64,000 nucleotides of DNA, from sequence record MK327935.1; one strand, written 5' to 3'. This DNA is from Escherichia phage vB_EcoM_G2494. Position numbers and translations under genes: made by a program. Below, piece after piece: positions 3,763 through 25,912 of the stretch. The notes under the pieces are model-generated. The model was not told the origin of the DNA and searched no databases. It saw nothing but the letters and a program-made list of their open reading frames with translations. Numbering within the stretch: the first letter of the stretch is position 1; the number at the start of each line of letters is the position of its first letter.

Positions 3763-4533
3763 ATGAATATTATCCGAATAAAACTACCGGAAGGTGTGCA
3801 GAGATTTAAACCATTCACGGTAAAAGATTATAGAGATTTCCTTCTGGTGTCAACTGAAATTAAGATGAATCCAGAAGAAGAACAAACGATTCTGGATGAG
3901 CTATTAGAAGAAATATATCCAGAAGTAGATCCGGCATTTCGTGAATATATTTTCCTGAATGTCTTTACTAGTTCAATTGGTAAAACAAAGATACCGCTTT
4001 GTTTTACTTGCCCGACTTGCAACAAAGAAAGAAAAATGTTGCTTAACTTACAGGTTGAAGCACTAAAACCAATCGTTCTAGAGGCCGCAGGGCTTAAAAT
4101 AACTTTCCGGTATGTTAAACCATCAACCGACTATGCAAAAACGTTTCTGGATGCGATAGAGCGTGTATCTGATGGTGTTAATGATTATCTATGGACTGAA
4201 TTACCGGAAGAAGTTAGAGAACAGGTTATAGATTCAATCTCATTTGCTGAATTTGAAGAAGTTGTTAAGCAGATGCACACAATCAAGATCGAACAAAAGA
4301 TATCTTGTTGTGAAAGTCATGACCTGAAATACATAGGTCTTCTTCCATTATTCAAATTGTTGTTGAATCCAGATGAGTTATTCATCTTTTATCGAATAAA
4401 CCATCTATTGGCAAAATCAAATTATTCTATCAGTGATCTTATGGATATGTTACCGATTGAGAGAAACATTGCACTGACACTGGTCGAGAAAGACGTAAAA
4501 GAGGCAAATAATGCAAAGAACGGGGTTTCCTAA
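3763..4533 (+). CDS. 51: baseplate hub assembly protein gp51
   Basis: 256 aa, divergent from 26 as in T4; CxxC pair FTCPTCNKE. Confidence 0.7.
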   Translation: MNIIRIKLPEGVQRFKPFTVKDYRDFLLVSTEIKMNPEEEQTILDELLEEIYPEVDPAFREYIFLNVFTSSIGKTKIPLCFTCPTCNKERKMLLNLQVEALKPIVLEAAGLKITFRYVKPSTDYAKTFLDAIERVSDGVNDYLWTELPEEVREQVIDSISFAEFEEVVKQMHTIKIEQKISCCESHDLKYIGLLPLFKLLLNPDELFIFYRINHLLAKSNYSISDLMDMLPIERNIALTLVEKDVKEANNAKNGVS

Positions 4534-5620
4534 TGTCTCAATAAAACTTTATCAGGATTATGAGGCATTTCTAAATCATCGCTTTATAGAATTGGGTGCT
4601 ACCTTTGTTACAATGACTCTGCGTGATTCGATTCGTGGGGTGAACGAAGGATTGTTGCAATTCTATGATAATAAGGCGATGCATACAAAATTAAATGGAC
4701 GAGAGATCATTCAGATTTCGCTATCCACTGCTAATACAGATGAAGTGTTTAACCGAATCTATGGGATCTCTCATAGTAATGTAACAATTGACCAAAAATC
4801 CGACAACATTTTAACATTCCAGTTAAAGAGCTATCACGAAACACTAAACCTTAAATTTTCTCGCTCATTGACAAATAACGCTGTTAATAACGTAACTAGC
4901 ATGATTGATGCCATCTATAAGGAAGTTCCTTTATGGAAACCTACTATAAAGGGTGATAACGTTGTTATTCCTCGTTGTCCGTGGGTTAGTACCATAAATG
5001 ACTATATGGATTTTGTGAGGGCATACGGGCAAAGCGTAGAAACAGAGTCTTTCGTGTATTGCTGGGAAGATTTTGATGGTATAACGATCGCTGGACACGA
5101 TACAATATTAAAAAATGAGCCAATACCAGCTATAATCTGTGAGCCTAGACTCATGGGGCAATTTATTGATATGTCGCCTAATCTGATGGTTTTTAATTTC
5201 GAGTGGCAGACTAAGAGCAATGCTAAAGTTAAAAATTCATTTAGCAATGTGACATACACAACTATTGATTTTGTTACTAAGCAGTATAATAAAATTATTG
5301 TTGGTAATGGAGATAATATTGCACACTTTGCTCATGGTGGCGCTTATGGCGATTTAACTTATAAGAATGCGTTTTTGGAAGGTTCTAAACTTGCCACAAT
5401 AGAACAATATGATTCATATGCTACCGCCGTGTGTCACGGTAATTTCTCGTTGCGCCCCGGTATGGTTATTCGATTCTTTGATGAGAAGCAACAAGCACGC
5501 AATGATTTTATTGTTGACGAAGTGGTGCATGAAATTAGCCGAGAGCAATCATTAACTCACCTGTATATGATCGGTAACAGCGAAGAATTACAGGAAGTCA
5601 AATTTGAAGGTAAGATATAA
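4511..5620 (+). CDS. 27: baseplate hub protein gp27
   Basis: QRTGFPNVSIKLY...NEGLLQFYD...IIQIS matches T4 gp27. Confidence 0.85.
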   Translation: MQRTGFPNVSIKLYQDYEAFLNHRFIELGATFVTMTLRDSIRGVNEGLLQFYDNKAMHTKLNGREIIQISLSTANTDEVFNRIYGISHSNVTIDQKSDNILTFQLKSYHETLNLKFSRSLTNNAVNNVTSMIDAIYKEVPLWKPTIKGDNVVIPRCPWVSTINDYMDFVRAYGQSVETESFVYCWEDFDGITIAGHDTILKNEPIPAIICEPRLMGQFIDMSPNLMVFNFEWQTKSNAKVKNSFSNVTYTTIDFVTKQYNKIIVGNGDNIAHFAHGGAYGDLTYKNAFLEGSKLATIEQYDSYATAVCHGNFSLRPGMVIRFFDEKQQARNDFIVDEVVHEISREQSLTHLYMIGNSEELQEVKFEGKI

Positions 5621-9864: not shown

Positions 9865-9896
9865 AAAGGCGGGGATTATCCCCCGCCTTTTTATTT
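9865..9896. terminator. bidirectional rho-independent terminator
   Basis: stem GGCGGGG/CCCCGCC with loop ATTATC, T-run on plus and A-run upstream; lies between convergent genes 54 and 9891 lipoprotein. Confidence 0.65.
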
Positions 9897-10376
9897 TGCT
9901 AAATCATTGCAATATTTTAGTGCCTTAGTTTGAAATTCTGCGCTGTTAAGTTCTTCATAACGGTCATAATCACCGTTTAATGCTGCCTTTCTTGCTTCTT
10001 GCTCTATCTGCATGTCAGACATGATAATACAGCGATCCCGTGCTTTCATCTTCTCAAGTTGTATAGACTCTTCTTTCTGCTTGCGCAATTCTTCTTGACG
10101 CTTCTTTTCTTCTTGTGCTTTCTCTTCCCGCGCTTCTTTGATTGCATCCTTGAACATCTGCGTTTGTGGTGCTAAACCAACTTTAACGCGATCTACGTCT
10201 CGACGTTCCATTTTAGAAATAAAGCATGATTCGATCTTATCATCACTTGCATATGTTGCTTTACATTCACGAAGCAAGAAAACCGGATCTGATTTAGCAT
10301 TCATCATAGCTTCCATGTTAGCACAACCAGTAAGCATGAATACAGCCGCAAGACCAATTAGTTTAATCATTTTCAT
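9891..10376 (-). CDS. putative lipoprotein with K/E-rich coiled-coil segment
   Basis: signal peptide MKMIKLIGLAAVFMLTGC with lipobox LTGC; start overlaps upstream ART gene stop. Confidence 0.6.
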   Translation of the reverse strand: MKMIKLIGLAAVFMLTGCANMEAMMNAKSDPVFLLRECKATYASDDKIESCFISKMERRDVDRVKVGLAPQTQMFKDAIKEAREEKAQEEKKRQEELRKQKEESIQLEKMKARDRCIIMSDMQIEQEARKAALNGDYDRYEELNSAEFQTKALKYCNDLAK

Positions 10377-11197
10377 TTAGTCACCTCACCGAAAATTGTA
10401 AATTGTCTACGATTCTCATCGCCGAAAGATTCTACTACGTCGTTTACCTTGACGCAAGTCCCGCGCGGTAAAATTACTTCACATTCGCAAGGGTTCCATG
10501 CAATGGACCCAACAACAAAACCTTTATGATCTTTTACATCAATCACCCATGATACATTACAAGAATGTTGCATCTTTCCGGTCATTGATTCATATCGATT
10601 CTCACAATAAAGGCTAGTGCTGTTTGAAAGCCATCCTCCAAAGATGATCGGTGTCATGCTAGTAGATACAAAGTTTTTAAAGGTAAATTCCTTATCTTCA
10701 ATAATACGCTCTATTGTCTGAATGTCAAGATGTTGACCGCGATAAAGAGTACCGTTTAACTTTTCGGTTTTATCCATGACACAATCCATCAAATCAACAA
10801 TCTCTGATATCTCATCGGTCATGTCTTCTTCCCCTAAGAGAGCACCATTTACCCATTCGTATTGTTCAGACACATAATCACAGATTGCATTATATTCTGC
10901 TGGGGTTATGTTGTTATGTTTGTAATGTTTGAATACATTATCTCCAAAGTCTTCGGAGTGTACTTCATACATCACATTAATGATTTTCTTTACAAATCCA
11001 TAATCTTGTGTCTCGCGCTCAAGGAAGCGGATAACCTTCACATAATCATCAAAGTTAATCTGATCGCTGATCATTTCAGTGATCATGTAACCATTAATAC
11101 CATCAATGTCATATGTTTCGATGTAATTATCCATACGTTCCATCATTGATTCGCGTGATTCTTCCGAAAGACGAAAATCCTGTAATTTCTTGAACAT
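10373..11197 (-). CDS. Alt-like mono-ADP-ribosyltransferase paralog (R-S-ExE type)
   Basis: LYRGQ, FVSTSMTP, NPCECEVILPRG motifs parallel the Alt C-terminal catalytic domain. Confidence 0.7.
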   Translation of the reverse strand: MFKKLQDFRLSEESRESMMERMDNYIETYDIDGINGYMITEMISDQINFDDYVKVIRFLERETQDYGFVKKIINVMYEVHSEDFGDNVFKHYKHNNITPAEYNAICDYVSEQYEWVNGALLGEEDMTDEISEIVDLMDCVMDKTEKLNGTLYRGQHLDIQTIERIIEDKEFTFKNFVSTSMTPIIFGGWLSNSTSLYCENRYESMTGKMQHSCNVSWVIDVKDHKGFVVGSIAWNPCECEVILPRGTCVKVNDVVESFGDENRRQFTIFGEVTK

Positions 11198-11275: not shown

Positions 11276-13327
11276 TTACATTTTAAATTTATCTGGCATT
11301 GCGTCTACCGATACCAGATCAGCGATAAGCTGACGTAGAGTTGCCTTATCTGCTTTCTTACGTTCGGTTTTAGCTTCGGTAATAAATCTGGAGAAAGACA
11401 GGTCAGAAGCAGGTTTAACAACACCTTCACGGATGAATGCATCACCGTCCGCGATCATCTCACCAGATTCTTGTAATGCTGCCAGTTCATTTTTGTTCAT
11501 AATATGTGCCTCAATGTAATAAGTTTCTTGTGAATCCGTCGATGCCGTAGCACGAGTTACCGTATCAAAGGATAACACAACACCGCGAGGAAGTAAAATC
11601 TCGCATTCTTTGTAAGCAAATGCTTTGTTACCTACTGGCAACACAGGGATGTTTTCCGCGCCAGCAATGGAGAAAGCAACATTAGCGCCACCTTCACCGC
11701 GAGAGCCAGCCATAGAATCAACACCAGCAACGGCACTAGCCACGTTTGCATTCCAGCCGCCAAAAATGTTAGGTGCAAGGGAAGTGCTCACATAGTTTTT
11801 AAAGTAAAACGCTTTTTGCTTACGTGCAGTTTCCCACATTTGCGACCGGAAGTCCATACCACGATACAGAATAGTACCCGGATCAAGTTTAACGCCATAG
11901 TTGGAGAAGGCATTATCCAGTGCATCACACATCTTGACCAATTCTTCTGGATCTGCGATGCCTTCAAACTCTTCCAGCTTACGGTCGGTTAGGAAGTTGT
12001 TCATATTGATGTATGCTGCATCGGCATATTCGCTCAACACAAAACCTTCCGCGCCTGGCAGATCAAGATCAATATTTGCCATCATTTCACCCATGTTGCT
12101 AGCAATTGCTTCAAACATACCGGAAGCAACATTACGTAGGGCATCGGTTTTAATCTGGGTGATATGACTACGCAGCATTTCAGCTTTTACATCTGCTGGC
12201 ATAGACTGGTCTACTCGATCCATTGCCAGGGCGGTGATCTTGTTTTCGAATACTTCCTCGCTCATGATTTCTTTTAAGCGTTTGATTGATGCTGCGATAA
12301 CTTCCGCAGACAACGGATCATATTGATCCTGAACTTTTACCAGTTCGCTTACTGCGTATTTTGCATCGGCTTCGCTTTCAAAAATAGTACGCATGAAACC
12401 ATAGCGAGTGATAATATCACTTGTCCATTCATTCAGAGAACGGGCGGTTGAACGTTCTAAGGCTTGACGATCAATCAGAGTATTAAACTGTTTCTTAGGT
12501 TCGGCTTCGGTGATATCTTCTTCCGGTTTAAGATTAATTTTTTCTGGATGATTCACATAGTCGCTGTTATAGGTCGCTTGAGTTTTCAGCATTTCTTCTT
12601 TAGTCAAACGAGATTTAGCCGCTACGCGTTGTTCCGCTTCCGCGTTTCGTTCTTCTTCTGACACCAGACTAGCCGCATACGCCTCATCTTTAGTCAGAGA
12701 TTCACCAGTAGCCTTAGATACCCAGCGATCACCTAAATCACTTTCTACTTTAGTGAACAAGGAATCATCAAGTTTAATCCCTTTAATCTTATCAATCGCC
12801 ATACCGCGACGTTTGACAACAACTAAAGCGATCTTTTTGCTGGTCATTACTTCCTGCTGGAATACTTCAAACTTCGGTGTACGACGCACCAAACGCTCTA
12901 TAACGCGCTTAACCAGTTCGGTCTTACCTTTCATGCGGGATACGTTAAAACGGAACATAACAGCGTCTAATTGCGCTTTACGGGCTGTTTCCATAACCAC
13001 ATCAAAAGCACTTGCCATAACTGCAATCGGGTTATCGCCTAGACCATTTTTAAGCTGTACAATACGACCGCTTTTGTTCATTTCGCACAGTACAACATGT
13101 GCGGTCTTGTCACCCATACGAATGATTTTAGGTGTTTTGTTGGTGAAGTTACAAAGACGGACAATCACATCTTTATCGCGTGTCTGTACTGCAAAAAGCT
13201 GTTTAGGATTCTGCTTAGGCTTTAAGCACTGTACCGGAGCAATACTGCCAAAGTTTTCTTCCTCTTCCGTCAACAGCCATTTCTCGAAAGATTCAATCAT
13301 TAGATCGTCGATTTCTAAGTTAAACAT
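11276..13327 (-). CDS. alt: Alt ADP-ribosyltransferase (virion-packaged)
   Basis: 683 aa (T4 Alt 682); ILYRGMDFRS, YVSTSLAP, ECEILLPRG catalytic motifs. Confidence 0.85.
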   Translation of the reverse strand: MFNLEIDDLMIESFEKWLLTEEEENFGSIAPVQCLKPKQNPKQLFAVQTRDKDVIVRLCNFTNKTPKIIRMGDKTAHVVLCEMNKSGRIVQLKNGLGDNPIAVMASAFDVVMETARKAQLDAVMFRFNVSRMKGKTELVKRVIERLVRRTPKFEVFQQEVMTSKKIALVVVKRRGMAIDKIKGIKLDDSLFTKVESDLGDRWVSKATGESLTKDEAYAASLVSEEERNAEAEQRVAAKSRLTKEEMLKTQATYNSDYVNHPEKINLKPEEDITEAEPKKQFNTLIDRQALERSTARSLNEWTSDIITRYGFMRTIFESEADAKYAVSELVKVQDQYDPLSAEVIAASIKRLKEIMSEEVFENKITALAMDRVDQSMPADVKAEMLRSHITQIKTDALRNVASGMFEAIASNMGEMMANIDLDLPGAEGFVLSEYADAAYINMNNFLTDRKLEEFEGIADPEELVKMCDALDNAFSNYGVKLDPGTILYRGMDFRSQMWETARKQKAFYFKNYVSTSLAPNIFGGWNANVASAVAGVDSMAGSRGEGGANVAFSIAGAENIPVLPVGNKAFAYKECEILLPRGVVLSFDTVTRATASTDSQETYYIEAHIMNKNELAALQESGEMIADGDAFIREGVVKPASDLSFSRFITEAKTERKKADKATLRQLIADLVSVDAMPDKFKM

Positions 13328-13928: not shown

Positions 13929-14447
13929 TTAGTTATTTTTTAATTGCTCATCTTGCAATAGGGCAATCACATGCTGGCGATGTTCTTCCGATTGAGGCAC
14001 ACCGAAAAAGTTTGTTTTGTAGAAATACTCTAATCGGTCTTCTCGTGTGCTCTCTTCCATCATGATCGCGGGTAGTCCGAGATTTCGGAAACGTCGCTTT
14101 TCTGCTGGCGTAAAATCACTGTAATACATCATAGAATCATCATTACCAGCAATGCTAAACTCATCCTTCATGAAGGAGAATATTGCGTTTAAACGCTGTT
14201 TACCGTCCACGATTTCGATCTCATAGCGAGAGCCATCATCAATCTTAGCCATTGCGATAGCACCAACCGGAAAATCATTAATCAGGTTTTCGATAAACAT
14301 ACGTTTGTTTTCGGTGTCCCATACTAAAGGACGCTGATAATCTGGGTTCATGTTGATATAGCCATCTTCTAACCATGCATCATAAACAGAGATGACAAAG
14401 TTTTTAGTATTGGTATAGTAACGGCGTTTAGGCGTTAAACGGTTCAT
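13929..14447 (-). CDS. DUF262 / ParB-like (GmrS-like N-terminal domain) protein
   Basis: NPDYQRPLVW and VDGKQRL motifs; ATG at 14447 with AGGAG RBS (ORF track start 14483 over-extends). Confidence 0.65.
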   Translation of the reverse strand: MNRLTPKRRYYTNTKNFVISVYDAWLEDGYINMNPDYQRPLVWDTENKRMFIENLINDFPVGAIAMAKIDDGSRYEIEIVDGKQRLNAIFSFMKDEFSIAGNDDSMMYYSDFTPAEKRRFRNLGLPAIMMEESTREDRLEYFYKTNFFGVPQSEEHRQHVIALLQDEQLKNN

Positions 14448-14448
14448 G

Positions 14449-14778
14449 TTATAGTCTCCTGAATGGATCATCACGTAAATCAATATCTTTTAAGAACTCA
14501 TCCCATGAATGGCGGATATTGTTCTTAATTCTCCAGATAAGAGCAGGGATTGAACGCTCTCCCATCTGGAAGTATGGATCATATGATCCGTATGCCCAAT
14601 ATGCTACTACAATTCCACAATCAGCGCAATAGTATTCTATTTCACTTGCTGGCGACAAAAGTCCATCAATATGATCGGTGATCTTGCTTTCGATGTTATG
14701 GCTATGACAATCAGGGCAACGGATGCAATGACCTTGTTTATCGTAATTTGATGTTAGTGAATACTTAAACAATCTCAT
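14449..14778 (-). CDS. Zn-ribbon protein
   Basis: CIRCPDCHSH...YYCADCG (two CxxC pairs). Confidence 0.55.
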   Translation of the reverse strand: MRLFKYSLTSNYDKQGHCIRCPDCHSHNIESKITDHIDGLLSPASEIEYYCADCGIVVAYWAYGSYDPYFQMGERSIPALIWRIKNNIRHSWDEFLKDIDLRDDPFRRL

Positions 14779-22269: not shown

Positions 22270-22743
22270 TTACTCCTTATTTTCGCGCTCGTACTTTTCG
22301 AAATAAAATTCTACTGGCTGGTCGTGGATTGACAGTAAGCCAAAGCGTTTAGCCGCTCGCAATCCCATATTGCGCTGAATGTACTTCTGGAAGTTCTCGC
22401 GTATACACTTACGCCAGTATTCTAAGCCCATACAGCTTTTGTAAAGATTGCATTGCACACAAGCCGGATTCATATTATCAAGTATATCGTGCTCCGGTTT
22501 ATGCATTCCTACAACCTTATACTTCCACGATCCATCATCATTACGGGCAATTCGTCCATTTTCATCATAGACTACCTTTGAGCGTCGCAATACTGGTTTG
22601 ATGTGGTCTGCGTGCCATCGGTCCCCTAGTTCCTCGCCACAATAGGCACAACGCCCACCGTATTTCATTTTCAGGATCTGGCGTTGCTCTTTCTTTGACA
22701 ATTTTTTAGGTTTAGGGGCTTTCGCCCCTTCATTATCACACAT
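22270..22743 (-). CDS. HNH endonuclease (157 aa)
   Basis: CAYCGEEL...WHADHIKP...CVQCN HNH zinc-finger motif. Confidence 0.65.
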   Translation of the reverse strand: MCDNEGAKAPKPKKLSKKEQRQILKMKYGGRCAYCGEELGDRWHADHIKPVLRRSKVVYDENGRIARNDDGSWKYKVVGMHKPEHDILDNMNPACVQCNLYKSCMGLEYWRKCIRENFQKYIQRNMGLRAAKRFGLLSIHDQPVEFYFEKYERENKE

Positions 22744-24238
22744 CGAATACCTCTTTTACTGTATTTGCAGTGGTCTTGTCGTAGCGAATACGTTTGATGA
22801 TCGGGAGAAATAAAGAGAACTCCGGTTCATCTTCTTTACGTGATTTGCTGCGGATATACCCGTTGCATGTCATCTCAATGACTTTTCCAATCAGGTTATG
22901 ACGGTCAGCCCATAACATTTCTCGGTCGAGTTCATTTCGACGATCGAACGGAATTACACGTTCAGTACCATCATCACCTTTTTCGGTTGTAGTGTCGGTT
23001 AATCCCGATCCGGTGTTAGTCATCATTCGTCCGCACGCACTACGGACAGTAAAACCGCCTACCTTATTGGGGTCTTTACTATGCGGATATGCATCAACAA
23101 TTTCCGCGTCGAAGTCAATCACTTCTTTAAATTTAACCTGATCTTTACTACGGCGATCTTCAAATACACCATGTAAATTTTTAAGGATAATACCTTCTAA
23201 GCCCATGTTTACATAGCGATGATATACTTCGCGAGCTTCATCGATATTGTTAACTACAGTGTTTTCGATTATCTGAACACGAGGATCGTTAAGTTCTTCA
23301 ACAATCTGTTTTAGTTCTTCGAATCGATCTTTATATTGCTTCGTTGCTTTCTCGTTTCCGTAATACACATCACGGTCGATAACATCCCAGACAGTGTAAA
23401 CAATACATTGGGCTTCTTCTTTTGGAATAGTTCCTTTAAGTGATTTGTTGAGGATACCATTTCCGGTCTGACGATCTGCAACAACGGATTCTTTCACTGC
23501 TTCCGCTACTGGCGTTAATGGCATTTCCTCTTCTTCAAATATCCATGACAGAGTACCATCATAAACGCTTTCAACGAAGTTCTGCGCTGGTGTTTGCGAA
23601 AGGGTAGGCATATATACCAATTCGCCATCTAGAACAATTCCACGGCCTCGTAGACGCTCTAAAACCGCAAACAAATCATCAAGTCCTTGATAGGTATTAC
23701 CTGAGCGGGTATAGATTGCTAATGTTTCCCCGTCAATATCAGCCATACCACGAGCGCCATCGCTTTTAAGTTGTGCATACGCCGGATACTTGATATTAGC
23801 AATAGTCTTATCAGAACATGACGATGCAAGGTGGCACGGCTGCTGGGGGATCAGTTTCTTCCATACCTTGTTTGCAGTGGTAGCGGAACAACCGCATTCC
23901 AGGTCACGATTCAGGACCATCATTGCAACTTTAGCATCATCTTCTGACAAGCAAGTCAGAGTATCGGTAACTAGCTGTAATGCTGCATTACCAGTTACTT
24001 GACGCGTGGCAAGTTTATTTTTAAAGACCTGCAATGCACCGGATAAAGACAATACAGACGAATAACGCGATGGTTTATCGTATTTCTTTACGCCAAACGT
24101 AACCTGTTTGCAATATGCCAGATAAAAGCATTCTTTCAGCGTTTCATTGCTCGCGGATTCTTTCAGAATCTTTTCTTTCAGCGATGTTTTGTCTGTTGTT
24201 GCAAGCTGATTAATGATATTAAGAATTGACATTTTCAC
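22736..24238 (-). CDS. 30: ATP-dependent DNA ligase gp30
   Basis: 500 aa; adenylation motif LKSDGAR; VMMxRDLECG and LIDGELVY segments match T4 ligase. Confidence 0.85.
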   Translation of the reverse strand: MKMSILNIINQLATTDKTSLKEKILKESASNETLKECFYLAYCKQVTFGVKKYDKPSRYSSVLSLSGALQVFKNKLATRQVTGNAALQLVTDTLTCLSEDDAKVAMMVLNRDLECGCSATTANKVWKKLIPQQPCHLASSCSDKTIANIKYPAYAQLKSDGARGMADIDGETLAIYTRSGNTYQGLDDLFAVLERLRGRGIVLDGELVYMPTLSQTPAQNFVESVYDGTLSWIFEEEEMPLTPVAEAVKESVVADRQTGNGILNKSLKGTIPKEEAQCIVYTVWDVIDRDVYYGNEKATKQYKDRFEELKQIVEELNDPRVQIIENTVVNNIDEAREVYHRYVNMGLEGIILKNLHGVFEDRRSKDQVKFKEVIDFDAEIVDAYPHSKDPNKVGGFTVRSACGRMMTNTGSGLTDTTTEKGDDGTERVIPFDRRNELDREMLWADRHNLIGKVIEMTCNGYIRSKSRKEDEPEFSLFLPIIKRIRYDKTTANTVKEVFDV

Positions 24239-24698
24239 CTCGTTTTGTTAAACGTTCACGAATATCATTGAGGATACTACAAAATTCCGATTCAGTCAAT
24301 ATAGTCTTTAACGGATCTGTTCCACCTATACTATGACGCAATTTCTTATTTCCTGTAGCGAGTAATGCTTTACAAAATTCTGGGTTATTCCGTGCCATCG
24401 TAACAAATGCCAGATGTACCAGTCTGTAATAATGCTCACTCATTCGATGAATCGGGCGACCCTGAAAATATAACATGTGATTCTCAGTCTTTTCAGTTCT
24501 TCCGGTTCTTTTTGCTTTGCCACCGTGCATCAAAAAGATTTCTCTTTGTCTCTGAGGGTTCTTAAATCTTAGCCCCTGTAAAAATCCTTCTGTGCTGTTA
24601 ATATCGCAACCAAATAGACGGAATGGTCTTTTATTGAAGTTACTCAATTCACCAGATGGATAAGGTCCACCCGCATAGATATCAATTTCAGAAGTCAT
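24219..24698 (-). CDS. NADAR / YbiA-like domain protein
   Basis: IYAGGPYPSGELSNF, STEGFLQGLRF segments resemble the E. coli YbiA NADAR fold. Confidence 0.6.
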   Translation of the reverse strand: MTSEIDIYAGGPYPSGELSNFNKRPFRLFGCDINSTEGFLQGLRFKNPQRQREIFLMHGGKAKRTGRTEKTENHMLYFQGRPIHRMSEHYYRLVHLAFVTMARNNPEFCKALLATGNKKLRHSIGGTDPLKTILTESEFCSILNDIRERLTKRGENVNS

Positions 24699-24852
24699 TG
24701 AAACTAATCTCGCTAATCAGAGAGAACGGATCATAATCGTCATTAGGAATATCGATAGTAATCGAATGAGGATTTACCCATACACCAAAGTGGTCTTCTT
24801 CGGTGAATACTTCGGTATGGATTTCGTGGATGTTTACATTCATAGTTTTCAT
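24688..24852 (-). CDS. small acidic protein (54 aa)
   Basis: ATG with AAGGA RBS; stop overlaps NADAR gene start; not in ORF track. Confidence 0.45.
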   Translation of the reverse strand: MKTMNVNIHEIHTEVFTEEDHFGVWVNPHSITIDIPNDDYDPFSLISEISFNDF

Positions 24853-24934
24853 AATAAAATTCCTTAATAATCAATAACTTACAAAATCATATAGCCAAAA
24901 TATAGGCGGGATTATTTCCCGCCGTTTAAAATCA

Positions 24935-25294: not shown

Positions 25295-25912
25295 TTATTT
25301 ATATTTCGCGACCTTTGGATTTCGCCGCAGACCGGAATGTATTTGCGCTATACAACAATAAGAAACATTAAACATATCAGCTATAATTTGCTTCTTAACT
25401 TTTCCTTTAAGCCGCATTATTTCTTCGACTTGCGCATTTGTCAGTTTTGCCCGTGAGTGGTTTTCACCGACATTGTTATTGAGTCCAGTTCTAAATGAAT
25501 GTCTCATATTTTCTAGTAAGGTTACTATTTCTAGATTCCACACATAATTGCAGGTTTTTACACCATTGATGTGATTAACCTCAAGTCCGGTAACGTCTCC
25601 TAGAAATGCATTTGCTACAAGTCGATGTATCTTTTCGGCTTTAACTGAGATTTTACCATTGTCGTTTTGTTTTGACAATGTTGAATAATAATATCCATAT
25701 CGGTCTAAAATTGGTTTTATTATTTTACCAGCACGTTTTTGCTTTACGAGCTTAATATTACCGGGAGAAACTTCTCTATAAAATTCGATACTTCGGTCAA
25801 TAGATCTCAATCTACCATAATTAGAGATTTCATACCACGGATAACCTACAGCTTGTCTCCATTCTTCCGGCGCTGGTAATATGATATTATCATCTTTTGT
25901 TTCCATTGTCAA
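25295..25912 (-). mobile_element. HNH homing endonuclease (NUMOD4 + HNH, mob-type)
   Basis: GYPWYEISNYGRLRS (NUMOD4), HINGVKTCNYVWNLE (HNH); inserted between 31 and cd. Confidence 0.65.

Follow-up and report, generated by a model that had tools for sequence, protein, structure and literature searches.

The Krischvirus gene 30.3 probably encodes an AdfN-type NADAR ADP-ribosylglycohydrolase directed against DarTG1

The NADARs characterised to date cleave N-glycosidic linkages between ADP-ribose and a base, namely guanine and, for some of them, cytosine, but not thymine (PMC11543638, PMC12945103). Among the phage members, gp30.3 of T4 hydrolyses guanine-linked but not thymine-linked ADP-ribose on DNA in vitro (PMC11125620), and it was later assayed on cytosine-ADP-ribose too (PMC12945103). 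[quoted passage not shown] The E36A and K43A variants of T4 AdfN are inactive and E36A abolishes counter-defence, while RB69 owes its sensitivity to DarTG1 to a frameshift that deletes from its AdfN the final 15 residues, which form the C-terminal helix (PMC11257639). AdfN does not counter DarTG2 (PMC11257639, PMC11825919). An independent transposon screen showed that T4 depends on 30.3 only when the host carries DarTG1 (10.1101/2025.11.20.689424), and a T4 delta-adfN phage likewise shows a phenotype on no other hosts (PMC11825919; 10.1101/2025.11.20.689424). T4 AdfN does not detoxify DarT1 outside T-even infection, so context may matter. Within the gp30.3/AdfN family, guanine-ADPr hydrolysis on DNA and protection from DarTG1 are documented for the T4 and T2 alleles only (PMC11125620, PMC11825919). 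The DarTG1 experiments of the AdfN study, conducted with Bas35-47, T2, T4, T6 and RB69, included no Krischvirus phage or allele, and our literature search returned no paper linking Krischvirus to DarTG.

We analyzed a window of 64,000 nucleotides, the whole stretch of DNA considered here, starting from a sequence-only reading that had proposed a 159-aa ORF with a GGPYP..LSNF string at 24219-24698 as a NADAR protein and candidate anti-DarTG factor. The ORF and the string were both confirmed: the N-terminus reads YAGGPYPSGELSNFNKRPF, AGGPYPSGELSNF is present there, and GGPYP..LSNF corresponds to residues 10-21. The ORF and its surroundings are as follows.

22270-22743, minus strand: HNH homing endonuclease
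22736..24232, minus strand: gene 30, ATP-dependent DNA ligase (PF01068 and phrog_114; start as annotated in RB49 and ECD7)
24219..24698, minus strand: gene 30.3 / adfN ortholog, 159 aa, predicted phage-type NADAR ADP-ribosylglycohydrolase (ATG at 24698, TAA ending at 24219)
24688..24852, minus strand: gene 31.-1, an ORF of 54 aa (phrog_15277, E=7e-41; annotated 31.-1 in RB49)
24905..24923, minus strand: terminator-like hairpin, 7 bp stem with 6 G-C pairs, then a T-run (pattern match only)
25295-25912, minus strand: HNH homing endonuclease

The minus-strand order is gene 31 (co-chaperonin), 31.-1, 30.3 and gene 30 (DNA ligase), with 31.1, cd and pseT farther out in a T4-type order. Gene 30.3 had been placed immediately downstream of the ligase. 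The adjacency is correct but the direction is not: since both genes are on the minus strand, 30.3 lies upstream (5') of the ligase, and "downstream" is true only in plus-strand coordinates. The last 14 nt of 30.3 overlap the ligase ATG at 24232; were the GTG at 24238 the start, the overlap would be 20 nt. On the other side, 31.-1 lies directly upstream of 30.3 and its stop overlaps the 30.3 start by 11 nt. This small gene is translationally coupled to 30.3 and is kept in Krischvirus and in a divergent, 68%-identical relative (L009), so that it is paired with 30.3 throughout the lineage; no gene named 31.-1 occurs in the T4 31-30.3 interval, a comparison made by gene names. The hairpin GGCGGGAAATAATCCCGCC at 24905-24923, with a T-rich tail after it, is found directly past gene 31 and before 31.-1, and could possibly be the upstream boundary of a 31.-1/30.3/30 transcription unit. 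Scanning from this hairpin to 31.-1 gave no convincing sigma-70-like site, the regional counts being those expected from shuffled sequence. The pair of homing endonuclease genes flanking the ligase/30.3/31 block, one HNH/EndoVII-like and the other NUMOD4+HNH_3, are mobile insertions, because related Krischvirus genomes cover only 84-93% of the 4-kb stretch and L009 is without the 31/31.1 copy. Inside 30.3 itself we found no same-strand ORF of at least 40 aa, the only internal ORF being one of 52 aa on the opposite strand; the T4 annotation places an out-of-frame ORF, 30.3', inside gene 30.3 (L002 (T4) 4403-4630).

The identity of the gene is established by its family matches. The protein matches PF08010 (Phage_30_3) with 133.3 bits and E=6.7e-39 over profile positions 2-138 of 138, for a cut-off of 36, and phrog_652 with E=7e-45; from these matches, far beyond chance, it is clearly a real gene. 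The generic NADAR family PF08719 behaved differently. With the 30.3 sequence alone it scored 15.5 bits against a cut-off of 35.1 (E=0.021), that is, below threshold, so the GGPYP..LSNF signature is real yet insufficient by sequence alone. At the level of the family the profiles concur, if weakly: the 75 relatives that we aligned all match PF08010, 18 of them individually match PF08719 at E<0.01, and the profile built from the 75 sequences reaches YbiA with E=0.0011 and 8bau with E=0.42. Only such family profiles reached YbiA and 8bau among our PDB searches. Searching PDB sequences with the 30.3 protein by itself brought up no NADAR, and the top match, a D-alanyl carrier protein ligase (E=7e-4), was rejected as spurious. 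The relationship to the NADAR superfamily is thus remote in sequence and clear in fold, and the NADAR assignment rests on fold and profile comparisons, not on a PF08719 match.

The number of relatives recovered depended on the search. A word-indexed protein search gave just 13, and an exhaustive search of representatives gave 988 cluster representatives at E<=0.001; conservation was read from the best ~160 matches of both protein searches (161-168 aligned rows). A scan of viral contigs with the single 30.3 protein returned two near-identical loci only, nothing beyond GenBank phages. In the representative library, gp30.3-type domains also occur in larger proteins, as tandem duplications (P0018, P0020), fused to a calcineurin-like phosphoesterase (P0058) or to BspA-type leucine-rich repeats (P0060), or with an N-terminal region of ~320 aa without Pfam match (P0024, P0041, P0074). 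P0062 and P0113, with two matched stretches each, have an aligned copy without the catalytic Glu.

Absence of a NADAR fold had been named beforehand as the result that would speak against the assignment. What we found is a core-only NADAR (YbiA-like) fold that starts at residue 5 and has no N-terminal extension, and in which the LSNF, E-x6-K/R and A-K-x-x-G-R ADP-ribose-binding motifs of the YbiA fold are all present. The positions concerned are listed below; the equivalences with the P. nicotianae protein PnNADAR (E37=E43, R44=K50, K63=K75, R67=R79) come from hhalign of the family profile A3 against the 8bau sequence.

24225..24293, minus strand: C-terminal helix, residues 136-158, intact (helix H136-158 in the model)
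24333..24335, minus strand: H122, codon CAT, last-strand histidine of phage (gp30.3-type) NADARs (H in 161/168 rows, invariant in A3)
24498..24512, minus strand: K63-R64-T65-G66-R67, A-K-x-x-G-R motif (K63 = PnNADAR K75, R67 = PnNADAR R79)
24567..24569, minus strand: R44, codon AGA, at the essential-lysine position (= T4 K43, PnNADAR K50, E. coli C7 K95, YbiA K55)
24588..24590, minus strand: E37, codon GAA, predicted catalytic glutamate (= T4 AdfN E36, PnNADAR E43, E. coli C7 NADAR E88)
24636..24647, minus strand: L18-S19-N20-F21, LSNF motif of NADAR/YbiA (aligns to LSNF of 8bau and SNF of YbiA)

Conservation of these key residues is high. In 168 rows the LSNF positions are L in 156, S in 159, N in 161 and F in 123 (L in 35 more); E37, which also aligns to YbiA E48, is E in 162, and the K63 column has K in 137 and R in 15. 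The PnNADAR equivalents are said to keep the distal ribose, adenine/phosphate and pyrophosphate in place, the last of these being shielded by K75 and R79 (PMC11543638). H122 belongs to strand E119-121/122 of the model, and the histidine of this last strand is the phage-family counterpart of a catalytic Glu/Asp (PMC11125620, PMC12945103). Across the best ~160 matches, the window protein agrees with the majority at practically all positions that are nearly invariant, including L18, S19, N20, F26, S35, E37, Q41, Q51, G59, A62, K63, G80, R85, L112, H122, G125, T132, L134, T135, E138, F139, L143 and R147.

Compared with T4 gp30.3 (AdfN), the window protein shares PF08010, 40% identity over the full length, the core-only fold, the catalytic Glu, the phage-type His, the intact C-terminal helix and the slot between genes 31 and 30. 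It differs by R44 in place of K43 and by a C-terminus 9 residues longer; in addition, 30.1 and 30.2, which separate 30.3 from the ligase in T4, do not stand between the two genes here, and the DNA of the host phage has unmodified cytosine (PMC4041780). From the DarG1 NADARs of DarTG1 (G. lovleyi 8bat; E. coli C7) the window protein differs in that it is without their N-terminal fold extension and carries a last-strand His where they have the catalytic Asp (DarG1 features per PMC11543638, PMC11125620). Unlike DarG1, it shares no operon with a DarT1 toxin, its neighbours being 31.-1 and the DNA ligase, and it is a phage gene used against a host system. With the P. nicotianae NADAR (8bau) and E. 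coli YbiA (2b3w) the identity is only ~22%, and the window protein has His where their last strand has Glu; the riboflavin-metabolism role of YbiA is not expected for the window protein. Finally, AdfN(Bas32) and AdfN(Bas60), from T5-like and Vequintavirinae phages, are likewise phage orphan NADARs against DarTG1 with guanine specificity, but they belong to other, independently acquired NADAR clades, whereas the window protein falls in the T4-type clade, and these two need no T-even infection as context in order to detoxify DarT1 (PMC11825919).

The lineage is that of Krischvirus (Straboviridae, RB49-type). The 4-kb region around the gene is 95-99% identical to all 59 matching Krischvirus records and 96.7-98.3% identical to the 15 listed, among which vB_EcoM_G37-3, ECD7 and KFS-EC, and RB49 gp30.3, deposited as "unknown", is 99.4% identical to the window protein. 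Six Krischvirus alleles of 30.3 are all full length with no frameshift, and they differ by 27 synonymous and 7 non-synonymous changes (pN/pS ~0.07). The gene is under purifying selection in Krischvirus. At codon 71 (24486-24488), the window allele has Thr and the five others Ile or Val; this variation, sited in a variable loop, is probably neutral.

One residue stands against a plain equivalence with AdfN: the counterpart of T4 K43 is Arg, while K43A is dead in T4. Among 161 representatives the R44 column has K in 147, R in 10 and another residue in 4. A neighbour-joining tree gives K as the root state and about 10 changes, one of them common to Krischvirus and a 68%-identical metagenomic relative with the same gene order (P0002 / L009); R44 is invariant in the six Krischvirus genes and in P0002. 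As Arg recurs with Glu and His kept (Krischvirus+P0002, P0019, P0035, P0126, P0128, P0142), the K->R exchange is, on the alignment, a conservative and recurrent natural substitution. An instructive precedent is the K95R variant of the DarG1-type NADAR of E. coli C7, which keeps hydrolysis in vitro and loses the DarT1 rescue of cells (PMC11543638). Because the Arg-bearing members keep Glu and His and C7 K95R is active in vitro, we expect the Krischvirus enzyme to be catalytically active; its potency against DarT1 in vivo is presumed. The nature of the DNA should be irrelevant here: RB49 DNA carries unmodified cytosine (PMC4041780), but so does T4-GT7, and since unmodified T4-GT7 is still DarTG1-resistant (PMC11825919), a difference in resistance would not be anticipated on this account.

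The same residue is the starting point of the only rival explanation to which we give some weight, although we consider it unlikely. The fold and chemistry would be unchanged and the K->R exchange would have retuned efficiency or substrate range, leaving a weak or ineffective anti-DarT1 factor that would mainly serve other nucleic-acid ADP-ribosylation, such as G-ADPr on RNA or the products of pierisin/ScARP/YarT-type guanine ARTs. The replaced lysine is by far the commonest residue and inferred to be ancestral, C7 K95R fails in vivo, and NADAR subtypes are known to differ in in-vivo specificity despite a common in-vitro activity (PMC11543638, PMC11125620). However, the repeated origins of Arg with E37 and H122 kept argue that Arg is tolerated, R44 has been fixed under strong purifying selection in relatives down to 68% identity, and the remaining active-site positions are all canonical. 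Should Arg nevertheless retune the enzyme, the gp30.3 of RB49-type phages would represent a natural variant of AdfN with altered specificity and not a plain ortholog, with unmodified-cytosine DNA, RNA G-ADPr or a guanine ART other than DarT1 as possible targets.

The genomic setting raises other ideas. The sequence-only reading had pointed to two ARTs in the genome, and both were indeed found within the window, about 11-14 kb from 30.3:

10373-11197, minus strand: shorter ADP-ribosyltransferase paralog, 274 aa (PF03496 above cut-off; directly downstream of the 683-aa gene)
11276-13327, minus strand: Alt-sized ADP-ribosyltransferase, 683 aa (PF03496 above cut-off)

The 274-aa gene is followed by a 161-aa ORF without Pfam match (9891-10376). 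Farther along, a 184-aa ORF with a TTG start (13929-14483, minus strand) matches DUF262, the domain found N-terminally in GmrSD type IV restriction enzymes (PF03235, E=6.5e-20), which is odd in a phage with unmodified-cytosine DNA; a fragment of a nuclease and a decoy are two possible readings. Both ART genes are of the PF03496 Alt-like kind and not DarT. One may wonder whether 30.3 reverses or edits the ADP-ribosylation performed by these enzymes, as a self-regulatory eraser, all the more so as the 30.3-30-alt neighbourhood is common to T4 and an Acinetobacter phage. We regard this as very improbable. Alt modifies host RNA polymerase and other proteins, as the T4 record annotation also states, whereas NADARs cleave base-linked ADP-ribose; T4 delta-adfN has no phenotype in the absence of DarTG1, and the neighbourhood reflects nothing more than the core gene order of T4. 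Indeed, T4 has 31 ... 30.3, 30.2, 30.1, 30, alt and the Acinetobacter T4-like phage has 31 ... 30.3, one ORF, ligase, ART, so that 30.3 occupies an orthologous position between genes 31 and 30, and its proximity to the ligase and the ARTs is inherited gene order, both phages keeping the same order.

A housekeeping role as in YbiA, in which the protein would be an N-glycosidase for intermediates of the riboflavin pathway or other small molecules and have no part in defence, appears a shade more improbable still: the last-strand residue is the phage-type His and not the YbiA-type Glu (PMC11125620), the protein groups with PF08010 and not PF08719, and the T4 ortholog clearly de-ADP-ribosylates DNA. 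We lend the least credence of all to 30.3 being an accessory factor of the adjoining ligase, in which translational coupling would reflect joint DNA repair. The 14-nt overlap with the ligase start and the fact that both proteins act on DNA would fit such a role, but 30.1 and 30.2 intervene in T4 and one ORF does in the Acinetobacter phage, therefore the direct abutment of 30.3 and 30 is a feature of the Krischvirus lineage and not a conserved pairing; start/stop overlaps are moreover found at the 31.-1/30.3 and 30/HNH junctions of the same gene string. From the T4 and Acinetobacter phage orders, a functional link of 30.3 to the ligase and to the Alt-like ARTs was rejected in favour of inherited synteny.

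We thus propose, with good though not full confidence, that the window ORF is the Krischvirus ortholog of T4 gene 30.3 adfN and encodes a core-only NADAR ADP-ribosylglycohydrolase active against DarTG1. The anti-DarTG role put forward by the sequence-only reading is supported, and the mechanism it had proposed is the published function of the T4 ortholog. In a host with DarTG1, the DarT1 toxin would ADP-ribosylate guanine N2 in phage DNA and block replication. The phage 30.3 enzyme would bind the ADP-ribose, through R44, K63 and R67 at the phosphates and adenine, and would cut the ribose-guanine bond by means of E37 and H122 around the distal ribose, which would yield clean DNA and let replication resume. 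It would act as an orphan antitoxin, with neither toxin binding nor action on the thymine-linked ADP-ribose that DarT2 produces. It is for T4 only that the activity of the enzyme and its DarTG1 phenotype are established, and the Arg-bearing Krischvirus allele would presumably play the same part.

The anti-DarT function is already known from the T4 ortholog and the phage lineage has long been sequenced. The main value of this analysis is hence one of annotation: the related phage records that we examined label the gene "hypothetical protein" or "gp30.3", and it can now be named a predicted AdfN-type anti-DarTG1 ADP-ribosylglycohydrolase. As a minor point, the natural K->R variant could serve to probe, on a small scale, how structure relates to function in the NADAR active site. 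A prediction also follows, namely resistance to the DarTG1 of E. coli hosts in RB49-like phages, a group in use in phage-therapy collections.
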